A stretch of DNA of 64,000 nt, from the IMG/VR virus record IMGVR_UViG_3300042350_003801. One strand, given 5' to 3'. Within the stretch, counting starts at the first letter, position 1; each line of letters opens with the position of its first letter. Of this stretch, positions 27,951 to 31,992 are shown in pieces. The notes beneath the pieces were generated by a model, which searched no databases, was not told where the DNA came from, and saw only the letters and a program-made list of their open reading frames with translations. Position numbers and translations under genes: made by a program. Origin of the DNA: a virus (Duplodnaviria; Caudoviricetes).

Positions 27951-28424
27951 TCACCCCACCCAGGCATTATCTCCGGCGAGAATCCTGAAGCGTTCGGCAA
28001 TATCCTCAACCGAATCGTAGGTCAACTCATCGAGACTCCTTTCTTCGGGTTCAAAAGTAGCAGGATCGGCGGTAATACCTGCAGCACGGTTAGCAATAAG
28101 ACGCTCAATACGAGCCTCAATGCTAGGTTCAGCCAGTTTCGTTTCAATGTATGCATCAATGGCTTTTTCGATCTCGGCCTTAACCTGTCTGGCAACACCG
28201 TTAACAATAACGGTTGAACCCATCCGACTTACAATACGTCGGCAAATTTCATTAGTGCGATCATCTTGGCCAAGAACATTGGCAAACATTTCTTCAAGAT
28301 GTTCATCGGTGAGAACAAGTTCCTTACGAGACCGAATCTCTTCTGTAAGGAGTTCTAGACCAACGAGTAGATTGTCAAGTGTAACGAGTTTGCCAGCAAC
28401 GGTGACTTTAGTTGGAGAAGACAT
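27951..28424 (-). CDS. hypothetical helical protein, last gene of the Ubl cassette, ends in Gly
   Basis: 9 nt downstream of E1; C-terminus DNAWVG. Confidence 0.7.
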   Translation of the reverse strand: MSSPTKVTVAGKLVTLDNLLVGLELLTEEIRSRKELVLTDEHLEEMFANVLGQDDRTNEICRRIVSRMGSTVIVNGVARQVKAEIEKAIDAYIETKLAEPSIEARIERLIANRAAGITADPATFEPEERSLDELTYDSVEDIAERFRILAGDNAWVG

Positions 28425-28432
28425 AATTGATT

Positions 28433-29137
28433 TCAGGAAGCAGAGGTTTTGAGGTTACGAACGTTGAAATAGAAGCCAGACTTATTGGCTTCTAATTTTT
28501 CATCCAGGAGGTTTTGAATCACCGCCAACGTAGCAGCGGCTGCCATAAAGTTGGCGGCGATAAGTTGCGGGCGAGACTCTTGAAGTCTGGCACAACTACC
28601 GGCGCGAGGAATTTCATCTTCCGGTTGGCTAATGTTGGGAACAACATCTTTTGGATTCATTCCAACATTCTCTCCATTGATGCGACCAAACCAAAGTGTT
28701 TGACCGCGAACTTCTTCAATACCATCACTGTTACCAGGAGTAATAAAGAAAAAGTCTTTGTCGGTGCAGGTAAGCATAATGGCATCAATTACAGCGGCGC
28801 GGGTTGCATCGTTATCAACCGCTGCAATAATCAGTGGAGACTCACTTTCCTCCAGGAAAGGAACAAAAGATGCCATCGTGATGTACTCACCAAATGCATT
28901 AACATTAGTGAGACCCATTGCACTACACATCTCAGCCATTGCATCAGCCTTATTTTGACCAACGTGATCCGGTGTCATAAACTGACGACTCTGATTCTTA
29001 TTCTCAAAGTCATCACCATCAATAATCGTAACCATATTGTCACGAGTCGCCGGATGATACTGAAGGGTTTTAACAAGAGGTGGAATAAGATACCCACCGG
29101 TACCGCCAGTTCCGATCACAAAAGTCTTATCAAACAT
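28433..29137 (-). CDS. ThiF/E1-like ubiquitin-activating enzyme (PRTRC-type)
   Basis: GTGGTG, IDGD, RQ..GQNKA, AVDN, putative catalytic SCA, Q...ANFMAA. Confidence 0.9.
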   Translation of the reverse strand: MFDKTFVIGTGGTGGYLIPPLVKTLQYHPATRDNMVTIIDGDDFENKNQSRQFMTPDHVGQNKADAMAEMCSAMGLTNVNAFGEYITMASFVPFLEESESPLIIAAVDNDATRAAVIDAIMLTCTDKDFFFITPGNSDGIEEVRGQTLWFGRINGENVGMNPKDVVPNISQPEDEIPRAGSCARLQESRPQLIAANFMAAAATLAVIQNLLDEKLEANKSGFYFNVRNLKTSAS

Positions 29138-29210
29138 AAAGAAGAAGAGGGGTGAAGGACAAATGAATCATAGGGCAAAGATTGCCCCTAGGATGAAGAA
29201 GTGGACGGTT

Positions 29211-30122
29211 TCACAACTGTCCAATAAGTTCTCCATTTTTGGTCACAAACCATTCTTTTTCACAAGAATCAGGCATCGTAAGATAACCATGATAGCTAAC
29301 TCCTTCGTGCTCAAGAACTGTTTCACGAAGAGGAAGAAGCATCATATAATTAGCCTCTTTAATGGGCTTAAATCCCGCCGAAATCATCCAGAAAAATGCA
29401 GAGATGTTATCTTCGGCATGGAGCATAAAGAGAGCATCTGCTTTTTCTGCAATGAACTTATAGTTCTGGGCATAGGTCTTAAAGAAGTTATCTGTGGCAA
29501 TATCATTTTTAACAATCTCATTATTCCGCACGAAATCGTGAATCTTGGTGAGATCGTTATTAAAGGGACTATCAAAAAACAACTTCACCATACTTTTAAG
29601 CGACTTTGGCCGCTCATTTCCTCCCCAACAAATAGCATGTGAACTATGAGTATTCGCAAGATGCTTACGTTGTTTGGAAAATTTAATCCTATTTTTAACA
29701 ACTTGGGTTGCCTGAAGGAATGCTTTCTGGTATTCATTAGTTGCCTGAAACCGTTTGTCGCGAGACTTAATATCTAGACTCAGTTGAAAAACAGTAGGAG
29801 CAACATCAAATTTTACTTTATTTGGTTCAGGAACTGCTAGACCTTTGGGGCATACACTTTCCGGGCCAAATCCGCTCTCTTGAACCGGATCACACCGACG
29901 ATTATTAACGTGTCTACAAGAATAACAGTTGTCTCTAAAAAATATATCATAAAGGCCGAGAGAATTGGGATTTACTTGGTCAACCTTGGAAAAGTTGTCC
30001 TCCATATGTGCCGCTAGAAATAGCCGGTCAGTTGTGAAGGTGTACGAAATTGCCGTTGTTTGAGTAGGAAGAAGATGAAGATTCCCCTTTGCGGGGGAGT
30101 CGGAAAAAATAACTGAATTCAT
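29211..30122 (-). CDS. prokaryotic E2-like protein (PRTRC protein B type)
   Basis: LANTHSSHAICWGGN..P...FFDSPFNNDL with E2-type Cys. Confidence 0.7.
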   Translation of the reverse strand: MNSVIFSDSPAKGNLHLLPTQTTAISYTFTTDRLFLAAHMEDNFSKVDQVNPNSLGLYDIFFRDNCYSCRHVNNRRCDPVQESGFGPESVCPKGLAVPEPNKVKFDVAPTVFQLSLDIKSRDKRFQATNEYQKAFLQATQVVKNRIKFSKQRKHLANTHSSHAICWGGNERPKSLKSMVKLFFDSPFNNDLTKIHDFVRNNEIVKNDIATDNFFKTYAQNYKFIAEKADALFMLHAEDNISAFFWMISAGFKPIKEANYMMLLPLRETVLEHEGVSYHGYLTMPDSCEKEWFVTKNGELIGQL

Positions 30123-30207
30123 TACGGTTTAACGGGTTAAGTGATCATTTTAAGTATAGGGGCAAAACTTGCCCCGTTCTACTATCGGTGTGCCAGTTCA
30201 ACGGCTG

Positions 30208-31320
30208 TCACGAAGACAACTCAATTTCAACTCCAATAAGAAAAGCAGCAAGTTGTTGCTTCATTTCATCAAGAGCATCCGAATCATTACGATTCTGCTT
30301 TAGATAATCCTCGAGCAAGTCAATAATGGGATAAATGTCTTCGGCGATTGGAACATCATTGGTAGTTTCAGTTACGTCAATAATTCCATCACTAAAGTAG
30401 AACGGATCGCTACACTTATCTTGCCAAGTATCACGATATTCCCAACTGTATTCAGAGTCTTCCCCATCATTGACGCCATAACTGTGGCTACAATACTCTT
30501 GATAAGAATTGTAAGTCTTTTTGGTTACAGGATTTTGCCTTGCTGGGGGAAGTTTCTTGAGAATGTTGCTCGTTGCAGCACGAACAGCCCGGCCACCATT
30601 GAAACCATAGGTAGCAGGAGTAGAGAAGTCAACATACTTGAGTACATTCTCGTGAAAGGTTACACCTTCTATGGGAGTTGCATCAATTAGATTATCATAA
30701 TGAAGTTTGAAGCGGCGATTGTTACCAGTAACACTGGCAGCAATTTCATACTTCATAGTCTTGGTATTAATCTTACCCACAGTAAGATGAATTCCAGGAT
30801 CGCCTAGCTCGTACTTATCATCAACGCCTGAGAAGAAGGCATTCATCGTATTATGCGAGTGGCTAGAACCTACAGGAACCCACCCTTCAGGAGGATAAGA
30901 CGTAAATTCTTCGCCAGTAACAAGGTCAACACACTCATCAAAGTTATCAGCCTTGACGCTTGCGGCTGTTACTTTTTGTTTGGGAACAACTGCACGATAT
31001 TGAGAAGGATTGGAAGCATTACGCAAGAAGCGAACAGATACTTCCATCTGTGAAGGAACCTTGTCTACAAAGTAGAAACAAAGTTTAATCCAACGGGACC
31101 AAAGATCGGCCGGAACGCGATGAATATCTTCCCTAACTTCAAAATACTCAAGAATTTCTTTAGTAAGGTCAAAGTTAGCCTCGGGGTCTGAGCAAGGGCG
31201 CAAGTAACTAACCCACGGACCTTTATAGACTTCCCAGGTTCCATCATCCGGTGTTCGTAGAATAGAAGGTGGAGCTTCAACCACGGGAGATTCTTCAATT
31301 GTGAGAGTTTCTTCGGTCAT
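30208..31320 (-). CDS. JAB/MPN+ metallopeptidase (PRTRC protein A type)
   Basis: E...HSHNTMNAFFSGVDD (HxH-x7-S-x2-D), GIHLTVG. Confidence 0.85.
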   Translation of the reverse strand: MTEETLTIEESPVVEAPPSILRTPDDGTWEVYKGPWVSYLRPCSDPEANFDLTKEILEYFEVREDIHRVPADLWSRWIKLCFYFVDKVPSQMEVSVRFLRNASNPSQYRAVVPKQKVTAASVKADNFDECVDLVTGEEFTSYPPEGWVPVGSSHSHNTMNAFFSGVDDKYELGDPGIHLTVGKINTKTMKYEIAASVTGNNRRFKLHYDNLIDATPIEGVTFHENVLKYVDFSTPATYGFNGGRAVRAATSNILKKLPPARQNPVTKKTYNSYQEYCSHSYGVNDGEDSEYSWEYRDTWQDKCSDPFYFSDGIIDVTETTNDVPIAEDIYPIIDLLEDYLKQNRNDSDALDEMKQQLAAFLIGVEIELSS

Positions 31321-31331
31321 AATGTAGTAGG

Positions 31332-31373
31332 AAAGAAAAAACCCGCCCAGTCATTGAAAACAACCGGGCGGGC
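31332..31373 (-). terminator. Rho-independent terminator between Ubl and JAB
   Basis: cccgccc/gggcggg stem then U-tract on minus strand. Confidence 0.75.
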
Positions 31374-31396
31374 AGGATTCAAGAGAGCTGAAGAAA

Positions 31397-31666
31397 TCAG
31401 GCGGCGCCTTTGCCTTCAGCTTTGATTACACCACGGACGGTTTCACCGGGACGGACTTGGGTAGGGCCAGGCACTTCAACGTTGTTGATAGCGAAGGTGC
31501 GAACGCGAGTAACGTCGCTGATAAGACGATGGCCGTACTCACCGAACAGTTGGGAAACGGTCTTGCCATTGTACTGTTCAAAGGTGAGAGCCAGTTCTTC
31601 CTCGTTCACCACAAGGGTAACGGCGGCGCTGGTATCTTGTTGGCGGAGGTTATCGTAGAAAGACAT
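31397..31666 (-). CDS. ubiquitin-like protein (pro-form ending KG-AA)
   Basis: 89 aa, beta-grasp-like pattern, C-terminal EGKGAA; first gene of JAB-E2-E1 cassette. Confidence 0.75.
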   Translation of the reverse strand: MSFYDNLRQQDTSAAVTLVVNEEELALTFEQYNGKTVSQLFGEYGHRLISDVTRVRTFAINNVEVPGPTQVRPGETVRGVIKAEGKGAA

Positions 31667-31704
31667 AATGATTAATTTCAGGGTAAGGGACGGTTGTTGT
31701 GTTT

Positions 31705-31992
31705 GAGGCGTTTGCCTCGTTCACCCTTATAAACTAACACAGATTGGTTGGTTTGGGGTGAATGGTGGACAGTTGATTTACTGGCCTTGGGGTTTGGTGA
31801 ATGTTGCGGGAGGACCGCGATTCACTTTAAGAAGCATAACACCTTTTTCTAAGTTTGGGGTGAAATGTGGACAGTTGATTTACTGGCCTTTGGAGTTGAT
31901 GAATGCTGCGGGTGGCCCGCGATTCACTAGAAACAACATAACAGGTTTTCTGGGATTGAGGAGTGGATGGTGGACGGTTGCTAAAGTGTCTT
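31705..31992 (-). promoter_or_regulatory. three tandem ~102-nt promoter modules upstream of Ubl
   Basis: Palindromes at 31765, 31867, 31970; -10 boxes 28-29 nt away; each leader has a small GC hairpin. Confidence 0.75.

Follow-up and report, generated by a model that had tools for sequence, protein, structure and literature searches.

A predicted ubiquitin-like conjugation cassette carried by a lake-water phage, probably a diverged relative of the PRTRC systems

The 64,000-nucleotide stretch analysed here (the window; IMG/VR record IMGVR_UViG_3300042350_003801, Duplodnaviria; Caudoviricetes) carries five consecutive open reading frames (ORFs) on its minus strand, at 27951-31666, which encode a ubiquitin-like modifier (Ubl), a JAB peptidase, an E2-like protein, an E1 and a small protein. 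Together they probably form a working Ubl conjugation pathway owned by the phage, a diverged relative of the PRTRC cassette, which is equated here with the type 6d systems; its chemistry is read from conserved residues and predicted folds. The cassette is complete apart from the unproven E2 fold, and it is old in its lineage. A complete Ubl-JAB-E2-E1 set had been proposed at this locus by a first-pass annotation, and the set proved to be real, with all five ORFs in place on the minus strand.

Homologues were found for the Ubl in 22 protein clusters and for the E2-like protein in 21 (53-100% identity), and a profile search of 1.8 billion representatives returned 80 E2-like relatives. These clusters, together with the kept order of neighbours, indicate that the ORFs are real genes rather than chance frames. 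The first-pass annotation had suggested a search with profile hidden Markov models of the known families. In such scans ThiF scored above its cut-off, while Prok-JAB, Prok-E2_D, PRTRC_A and PRTRC_ThiF gave sub-threshold but specific matches.

The Ubl gene (31397-31666, minus strand) encodes a precursor of 89 residues that ends in GKGAA, so that Gly87 is followed by Ala-Ala. The Pfam/NCBIfam scans gave no family match for this protein. Its AlphaFold2 (AF2) model has a predicted local distance difference test score (pLDDT) of 78.7 and a beta-beta-alpha-beta-beta-beta topology. When the model was searched with Foldseek, 50 of the 50 top matches were beta-grasp proteins (MoaD, TGS, Urm1, SUMO, NEDD8, ubiquitin, ISG15), with E-values from 3e-3 to 8e-2. 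A Foldseek-independent search (VIA) also returned almost only beta-grasp folds (Z 6-8, best 8.0), among them 8tyz_B (Z 6.8), the Ubl chain of a complex that bacterial Bil proteins form between E1, E2 and Ubl. The Z values are modest, and the argument lies in the uniformity of the match list together with the sequence pattern. The predicted model and both fold searches thus favor the beta-grasp fold that had been proposed for the 89-residue protein.

Gly87 is invariant in 22 Ubl sequences, in which it is followed by AA, A, LA, NA, AF, AL or nothing. In much more distant operons the Gly precedes QN or nothing, and the Ubl of one distant operon ends in KG-stop. BilA has a universally conserved Gly and a short non-conserved tail, which was shown experimentally to be removed by its JAB deubiquitinase (DUB; PMC10557695). 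As an invariant Gly87 is followed by zero to two variable residues, trimming of the AA by the JAB is the natural reading. Such trimming had been proposed earlier. The expected pattern is borne out and is the same as that of BilA/BilC (PMC10557695), while the cleavage itself is a prediction.

The second gene (30208-31320, minus strand) encodes a JAMM/JAB metallopeptidase of 370 residues with an extra N-terminal domain of ~130 residues and a C-terminal extension. The motif reads H154-S-H156, seven residues, S164, two residues and D167, and with an upstream Glu, E94, the protein has the zinc site of JAMM/MPN+ peptidases (Glu ... H-x-H-x7-S-x2-D). H154, H156, S164 and D167 are invariant in six JAB homologues from phages and plasmids, and E94 is kept in five of the six; the alignment includes the proteins of Salmonella phage Arash, Bacillus phage WH1, a Nostoc plasmid and Bacillus cereus pG9842_209. 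Scores were 21.4 bits against Prok-JAB (cut-off 25) and 22.3 bits against PRTRC_A (cut-off 101.8). The JAB is predicted to mature the Ubl and to deconjugate it.

In two relatives (loci L002 and L003) the JAB gene is split between HSH and NTM, within the zinc-binding motif, by a group I intron (Rfam RF00028; 54 bits in L002 and 58 bits in L003, gathering score 50) that spans L003:960-1198 and L002:2499-2735, with approximate splice sites. The L002 intron carries an ORF of the LAGLIDADG type (homing endonuclease) at L002:2699-3739. The window holds the intron-less allele, with the homologous site at about 30852/30853. Group I introns typically home to conserved, essential sites, which argues that the JAB motif is conserved and the gene in use.

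The E1 (28433-29137, minus strand) is a minimal ThiF-type protein of 234 residues, with no rhodanese and no fused E2 or JAB domain. It contains G-T-G-G-T-G, R51-Q52 and S181-C182-A and matches ThiF (PF00899) with 43.5 bits against a cut-off of 28.1; its best NCBIfam match is PRTRC_ThiF (48.5 bits, cut-off 144.75). Across nine aligned E1s from phages, plasmids and PRTRC-type systems the residues G9, G11, G12, G14, D42, N48, Q52, K63, D108, R113, S181 and C182 are invariant. Matches in tblastn include Bacillus cereus and Nostoc plasmids. The E1 assignment is secure, and Cys182 would by analogy be located in the crossover loop.

The protein encoded at 29211-30122 (minus strand; 303 residues; motifs ICWG and FFDSPFN) is assigned as E2-like with moderate confidence, and this assignment is the weakest link of the cassette. 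The layout comprises an N-terminal Cys4 cluster (C66, C69, C77 and C91), a core with N157-x7-C165-W-G and N188-x-D190, and a small C-terminal beta-barrel (~263-303). All 57 homologues aligned (16-39% identity) share N157, C165, W166, G167, N188 and D190, and the four cysteines of the cluster are nearly invariant among them. The first-pass annotation had made its case depend on conservation of the E2-like Cys, and C165 is present in all 57. Canonical E2s carry the signature HPN...Cys. N157, eight residues before C165, fits this pattern, as it appears to mirror the HPN-to-Cys spacing.

Pfam gave a single match to the E2-like protein, Prok-E2_D (PF14460; E 0.0076, 16.4 bits, cut-off 25), and this weak match recurs in 15 of 19 close homologues, with a best E-value of 1.8e-4. 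In hhalign comparisons the family aligned over the Cys motif with a Nostoc plasmid protein named 'prokaryotic E2 ligase family D protein' in RefSeq (probability 92.5% / 83%, E 4.7e-7 / 8.9e-6). The two share N-x7-C-[WY]-G-x-N ... PFN-x-DL. The Nostoc protein itself matches PRTRC_B (E 2.5e-16), and its JAB and ThiF neighbours match PRTRC_A and PRTRC_ThiF (135 bits). The phage protein is linked in this way to PRTRC_B/Prok-E2_D through one intermediate. In addition, the predicted order of strands and helices fits UBC/E2, in a model of pLDDT 49.8. In tblastn the E2-like protein matched none of the deposited phages.

Upstream of the five genes, a further ORF (32402-33049, minus strand) encodes a fusion of 215 residues, here called cargo-Ubl. 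The C-terminal 72 residues of this protein are paralogous to the Ubl and end at the equivalent of Gly87: by BLASTP, residues 144-215 are 42% identical to residues 16-87 of the Ubl (E 1e-16). Its homologues end in Gly in six of six clusters. To judge by its sequence, cargo-Ubl would be an N-terminally extended modifier that needs no trimming; Ubls with N-terminal domains are known from the Bil and Bub systems (PMC11601603). A paralogy between the N-terminal domain of cargo-Ubl and the neighbouring 136-residue protein was considered and left unconfirmed (BLASTP E 0.06).

The fifth gene of the cassette (27951-28424, minus strand; 157 residues) starts 8 nucleotides (nt) past the E1 stop. A small gene follows E1 in L001, L002, L003, L016, L017 and L004. 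The protein diverges fast: the N-terminal ~110 residues can be aligned, the C-terminus is unconserved, and no match was obtained in the Pfam/NCBIfam scans or in Atlas. Its terminal Gly, to which attention had been drawn earlier, is not kept. Relatives end in W or A, which rules the protein out as a second Gly-terminated modifier.

Five loci of relatives cover the cassette from end to end (L002, L003, L004, L016 and L017), and each of them shows the arrangement Ubl-JAB-E2-E1-small protein. L001, which has no Ubl gene call, and L005, which is short and of low coverage, lie outside that count. Syntenic relatives have an E2 identity of 59% (L001/L002), 53% (L003) and ~24-35% (L004, L016, L017). 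At 53-59% (L001, L003) both the gene order and an upstream motif are kept, and at ~24% (L004) the gene order alone. The view that the cassette is assimilated, and not a freshly arrived island, was upheld by these comparisons, and residence of the cassette in the phage lineage over a long term is supported at the sequence level.

The motif, TGGACNGTT, is enriched in the window (14 occurrences versus 1.8 expected), in L001 (6 versus 0.4) and in L003 (4 versus 0.3). On the coding strand it forms the right arm of an imperfect palindrome, found at many of the minus-strand starts and usually placed 45-100 nt ahead of the start codon. In relatives the palindrome is kept upstream of the Ubl and E1 genes, and its conservation at both sites supports assimilation into phage regulation. 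These palindromes had been described as promoters shared with the rest of the genome. The over-represented motif is real, while the promoter role is putative. A full palindrome, TGGACGGTT-N4-AACTGTCCA, is found at 29202-29223, where it takes in part of the stop codon of E2 or all of it and precedes the start of E1 by 65-85 nt. It is a candidate internal operator or promoter, and the same motif is also present at the E2/E1 junction of L001 (5821-5829) and L003 (2805-2813).

The region upstream of the Ubl gene (31667-31992, minus strand) contains a tandem duplication, half-palindromes and hairpins and may act as a promoter. A 102-nt unit is tandemly duplicated at 31735-31938, and a third copy (33587-33670, 88% identical) lies upstream of the gene at 33143-33511. 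Each copy has a GC-rich hairpin (GAATCGCGGnCCnCCCGC...) and a half-palindrome, and within the window the hairpin motif occurs at these three sites only. Upstream of the Ubl the half-palindrome AACNGTCCAC is present three times (31766, 31868 and 31971), and the GC-rich hairpin motifs are at 31806-31823 and 31908-31925. The TGGCAC-like half-site of the palindrome was rejected as a sigma-54 promoter, as a matching -12 element is missing.

The Ubl and JAB genes are separated by a hairpin resembling an intrinsic terminator (31341-31373, minus strand; 15 pairs, 8 of them GC, followed by a T-run), a candidate attenuator through which the Ubl would be transcribed in excess. A second terminator-like hairpin (27883-27915, minus strand; 14 pairs) closes the operon. 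Contigs with the Ubl gene were found in three freshwater metatranscriptome runs from two studies; in one of the runs the JAB, E1 and fifth genes of a relative are represented by contigs as well. Word depth in that run was 101 for the Ubl contig versus 7-10 for the contigs of the relative's JAB, E1 and fifth gene. These contigs are suggestive of expression and of an excess of Ubl, but only suggestive.

Taken together, the residues and folds suggest the following pathway. The 89-residue Ubl would be made as a precursor, probably in excess, given the terminator-like hairpin after its gene. The JAMM peptidase would then cut off the two C-terminal alanines and expose Gly87, which the ThiF-type E1 would adenylate before holding the Ubl as a thioester on Cys182. 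From there the Ubl would be handed to Cys165 of the E2-like protein, which would move it onto an amino group of one or a few targets. The E2-like protein may recognise its substrates without a separate E3, as it has a Cys4 metal-binding module and a C-terminal barrel of its own. The JAB could also reverse the mark. Cargo-Ubl would be a second modifier that requires no processing and brings a 140-residue domain with it, and the product of the fifth gene may be an adaptor or a substrate. The most likely role of the pathway is takeover or conflict, through modification of host or phage proteins during infection.

Several observations weigh against this reading. The AF2 model of the E2-like protein, built with 19 close homologues, reached a pLDDT of only 49.8, and the Atlas model was worse; the fold search returned only a generic SH3/Tudor-like barrel at the C-terminus. 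A profile search with the deep E2-like alignment against PDB sequences gave nothing even at E 10. PRTRC_B (TIGR03737) had no match in the 57 homologues, and Prok-E2 was likewise unrecovered in the Pfam/NCBIfam scans. Direct hhalign comparison with a Photobacterium PRTRC_B-like protein was not significant, though N-x7-C-x-G lines up. A His downstream of the Cys is absolutely conserved in 6d E2s (Iyer et al. 2006; PMC1779556) and is not kept in the phage family, where His235 is present only in close relatives (9 of 57). The matches to Prok-E2_D, Prok-JAB, PRTRC_A (22 versus 102 bits) and PRTRC_ThiF (48 versus 145 bits) all fall below the curated cut-offs. The RNA evidence consists of assembled contigs, for which DNA carry-over is possible. 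The targets may be host proteins, a rival phage or host immunity, among which the sequence does not discriminate.

A more specific form of the conjugation pathway is a system of two modifiers, in which a free Ubl matured by the JAB acts beside cargo-Ubl, and the latter welds its 140-residue effector domain onto chosen host or phage proteins, without an E3, by means of the metal-binding module of the E2. We put this forward tentatively, as a possibility that falls well short of being probable. If true, the system would represent the first complete Ubl cascade to be encoded by a virus among prokaryotes, as well as a novel way of achieving takeover or counter-defence.

With the same enzymology and another role, the cassette could be defence or exclusion cargo that tags a structural protein of a rival phage in the manner of Bil and blocks co- or superinfection. 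We consider this unlikely. Large phages often carry exclusion genes, and the window encodes a very large tail-fibre protein, of the class targeted by Bil. Type II CBASS (anti-phage signalling that is based on cyclic oligonucleotides) and Bil act against phages, and Bub is judged to do so by its genomic context (PMC11601596, PMC11601603). Nevertheless, the Bil models in PADLOC match only through BilD (to the E1, 13 bits). Moreover, the cassette is no variable island: throughout the phage lineage it is fixed and syntenic and has a regulatory motif of its own. The systems nearest to it are found on plasmids and phages instead of in defence islands.

Neutralisation of host Bil or type II CBASS, in which the JAB would strip conjugates while the phage Ubl, E1 and E2 compete or misdirect, seems quite unlikely. 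The N-terminal domain and long C-terminal extension of the JAB could recognise foreign conjugates, and host Ubl immunity targets phage tails (PMC11601603). Stripping needs a peptidase only, however, whereas strict conservation extends here to all four activities, the two catalytic cysteines and the Gly of the Ubl, and beyond generic domains there is no similarity to the Bil or Cap3 models.

The Ubl might instead serve as a thiocarboxylate carrier of the ThiS/MoaD/TtuB type for tRNA or cofactor thiolation, which would fit the tRNA-synthetase and RNA-repair genes of the phage; RNA ligase, kinase/phosphatase-pair and aminoacyl-tRNA-synthetase genes lie near the cassette in the window and in relatives. 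MoaD, ThiS-like and TtuB chains are among the top structural matches of the Ubl, and ThiF- and MoeB-type models match the E1. Against these points, the best match of the E1 is PRTRC_ThiF and not the ThiF/MoeB equivalogs, and an E2-like protein with an invariant Cys and a cargo-Ubl have no role in sulfur relay. No rhodanese, cysteine desulfurase, PP-loop ATPase or ThiG/MoaE was present among the annotated neighbours, not all of which were scanned for these. A sulfur carrier is on balance very unlikely.

That a plasmid PRTRC cassette has survived here only as an inactive or decaying leftover, as the sub-cut-off scores of the curated PRTRC, E2 and JAB models might suggest, is scarcely credible and already disfavoured by conservation, for the ORFs are all intact, the predicted catalytic residues are invariant over deep divergence, synteny holds in 5/5 whole-cassette loci and the genes are present in metatranscriptome assemblies.

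The phage in which this conjugation cassette resides has nearly all of its window genes on one strand; most are small and their content is of phage type. Among their products are a tail-fibre protein of very large size that bears a tail-collar domain, an RNA ligase, a helicase, two TnpB proteins and two proteins resembling class II aminoacyl-tRNA synthetases. The longest contigs with identical or related proteins are 236-250 kb. At least half of the window's words recurred in 8 of 24 listed runs of lake-water metagenomes; 6 of these 8 possibly derive from the same source material and 2 are clearly independent samples. Compared at the DNA level with deposited phages, neither the cassette nor 24 kb of the window gave a match, and a scan of IMG/VR with the E2-like alignment gave no relative.

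The first-pass annotation had spoken of a lytic cyanophage. Neither term is established, as the basis for them is the lake-water metagenomes and one RNA ligase match. The best deposited match of the RNA ligase (37917-39404) is in Synechococcus phages B3/B23 (244 kb), at 46% identity, and this match is the sole pointer to a cyanobacterial host. The same two phages had no match to the E1 or the E2-like protein at the thresholds used. Two full-length IS605-type TnpB genes (33814-35010 and 54836-56014) are on the plus strand, opposite to almost all others. A TnpB scan of genome contigs for a host found nearest relatives of 29-56% identity in unrelated bacteria and gave no host clue.

The synthetase genes are located at 45523-47016 and 49689-50498. 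They comprise a class II Asp/Lys/Asn-type tRNA synthetase with an anticodon-binding oligonucleotide/oligosaccharide-binding (OB) fold and a SerRS-like catalytic core of 269 residues, which is 61% identical to a serS-annotated gene in the 254-kb record 'Acinetobacter phage MD-2021a'. No tRNA genes were found in the window. The cassette sits within an array of paralogous small genes (25812-27596, 33143-33511 and 35092-35538) that have constant ends (..NFWW ... ATYEL..MH.LL) and a variable middle of 12-bp repeats encoding repetitive runs. Directly upstream of the Ubl position, L001 (610-1817) and L002 (153-1360) carry an AAA_33/KTI12-like kinase together with a metallophosphatase, a combination that is typical of RNA repair; the window has the cargo-Ubl fusion and the gene for the 136-residue protein in this position instead. 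In one distant relative only, a gene for ClpS, the N-degron adaptor, lies ~500 bp downstream of the cassette (L017:8247-8549), which hints at a possible link between tagging and proteolysis.

No characterised phage-encoded Ubl cascade was found in the searchable literature, and a comparative review of jumbo phages makes no mention of JAB, E1 or E2. The Ubl conjugation systems studied so far (type II CBASS, Bil and Bub) are host operons (PMC11601596, PMC11601603). A conserved cascade fixed in a phage lineage would mean that bacterial viruses also use Ubl chemistry, as eukaryotic viruses exploit ubiquitin. The cassette offers a compact set for experiment, with an E1 of 234 residues, an E2 with a built-in Cys4 module and two modifiers. 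Related triads of an E2-like protein, a JAB and a ThiF occur in cultured Salmonella and Bacillus phages, so that the question of phage tagging is open to genetics now.

Such triads were found in Bacillus phage vB_BceM_WH1 (gp214-216; L006), Bacillus phage Edson, Salmonella phage Arash (gp248c-246c; L007) and the phage-like plasmid B. cereus pG9842_209 (L011). As in the window, a JAB with an N-terminal domain and a C-terminal extension adjoins a ThiF, the E1s are ~29% identical, and neighbouring proteins of 241-251 residues carry N-x7-C-x-G ... PFN-x-DL. By hhalign, the E2-like family matched the WH1 protein with a probability of 89% (E 2e-6) and the Arash protein with a probability of 42% (E 2.7e-4). 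The triads differ in their order, which is E2-like, JAB, E1, and no Ubl was recognised beside those of Arash and WH1. In the deposited records they are annotated only as hypothetical or 'structural'. The latter label in Arash was discounted as evidence for a place in the virion, since the proteome concerned lists 116 proteins, including RNA polymerase and ribonucleotide reductase.

Type II Bil is the CEHH/6C operon (PMC10557695). Bil and the phage cassette have in common the activities of a Ubl, an E2, a JAB DUB and an E1, as well as the pattern of a conserved Gly with a non-conserved tail. However, the E1 of Bil is a multidomain protein with inactive and active adenylation domains and a CYS domain, whereas that of the phage is a single domain of 234 residues; the CEHH motif is absent from the phage cassette; and Bil is host-encoded defence while the cassette is encoded by a virus. 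With PADLOC, BilD matched the E1 at 13.4 bits, and BilA, BilB and BilC gave nothing. The phage cassette is not Bil.

Bub (6E/DUF6527) and Cap2/Cap3 of type II CBASS resemble the phage cassette as prokaryotic E1/E2/peptidase systems with beta-grasp or C-terminal-Gly substrates. Bub differs in its oxyester (Ser/Tyr) intermediates and serine protease, and CBASS in an E2-E1 fusion that conjugates the CD-NTase. The phage cassette, in contrast to both, has a separate E1 and E2, each with an invariant Cys, a free Ubl and a JAMM peptidase. In PADLOC the E1 had weak matches (<=25 bits) to CBASS-type E1-E2 fusion models, and the other four proteins had none.

The closest likeness in composition is to type 6d of Iyer et al. 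(2006), which comprises a Ubl with a C-terminal Gly, a JAB with an N-terminal domain, E2-like and E1-like proteins and a rapidly diverging alpha-helical protein, and which was described from beta-proteobacteria, B. cereus, B. thuringiensis, Anabaena and Bacteroides (PMC1779556). We infer, from the composition and taxa that the two have in common, that the PRTRC cassette (NCBIfam TIGR03734-03742) is type 6d and that the NCBIfam PRTRC models are the curated form of this family. The phage cassette has the same five-part composition as PRTRC, which is carried by plasmids and integrative and conjugative elements, and PRTRC_A and PRTRC_ThiF are the best NCBIfam matches of the phage JAB and E1. Moreover, as in 6d, the phage has a stand-alone beta-grasp protein with a conserved C-terminal Gly and an E1 without rhodanese, and the matches of its E1 on B. 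cereus and Nostoc plasmids fall within the taxa listed for 6d.

The differences from PRTRC lie in the phage gene order (Ubl-JAB-E2-E1), in the Cys4 module and C-terminal barrel added to the E2-like protein, in carriage by a lake phage (longest contig ~250 kb) and in the extra cargo-Ubl gene. No ParB family was found in the Pfam/NCBIfam scans of ten cassette and flanking genes (26686-33511), further genes having been scanned only in part. By profile comparison, the E2-like protein appears to be a distant relative of Prok-E2_D/PRTRC_B, and the cassette a phage-borne and diverged relative of the PRTRC cassette, itself uncharacterised. The phage cassette would work like PRTRC/6d without being a member by the curated definitions, and is a new, phage-borne variant of these uncharacterised PRTRC/6d-like Ubl systems.

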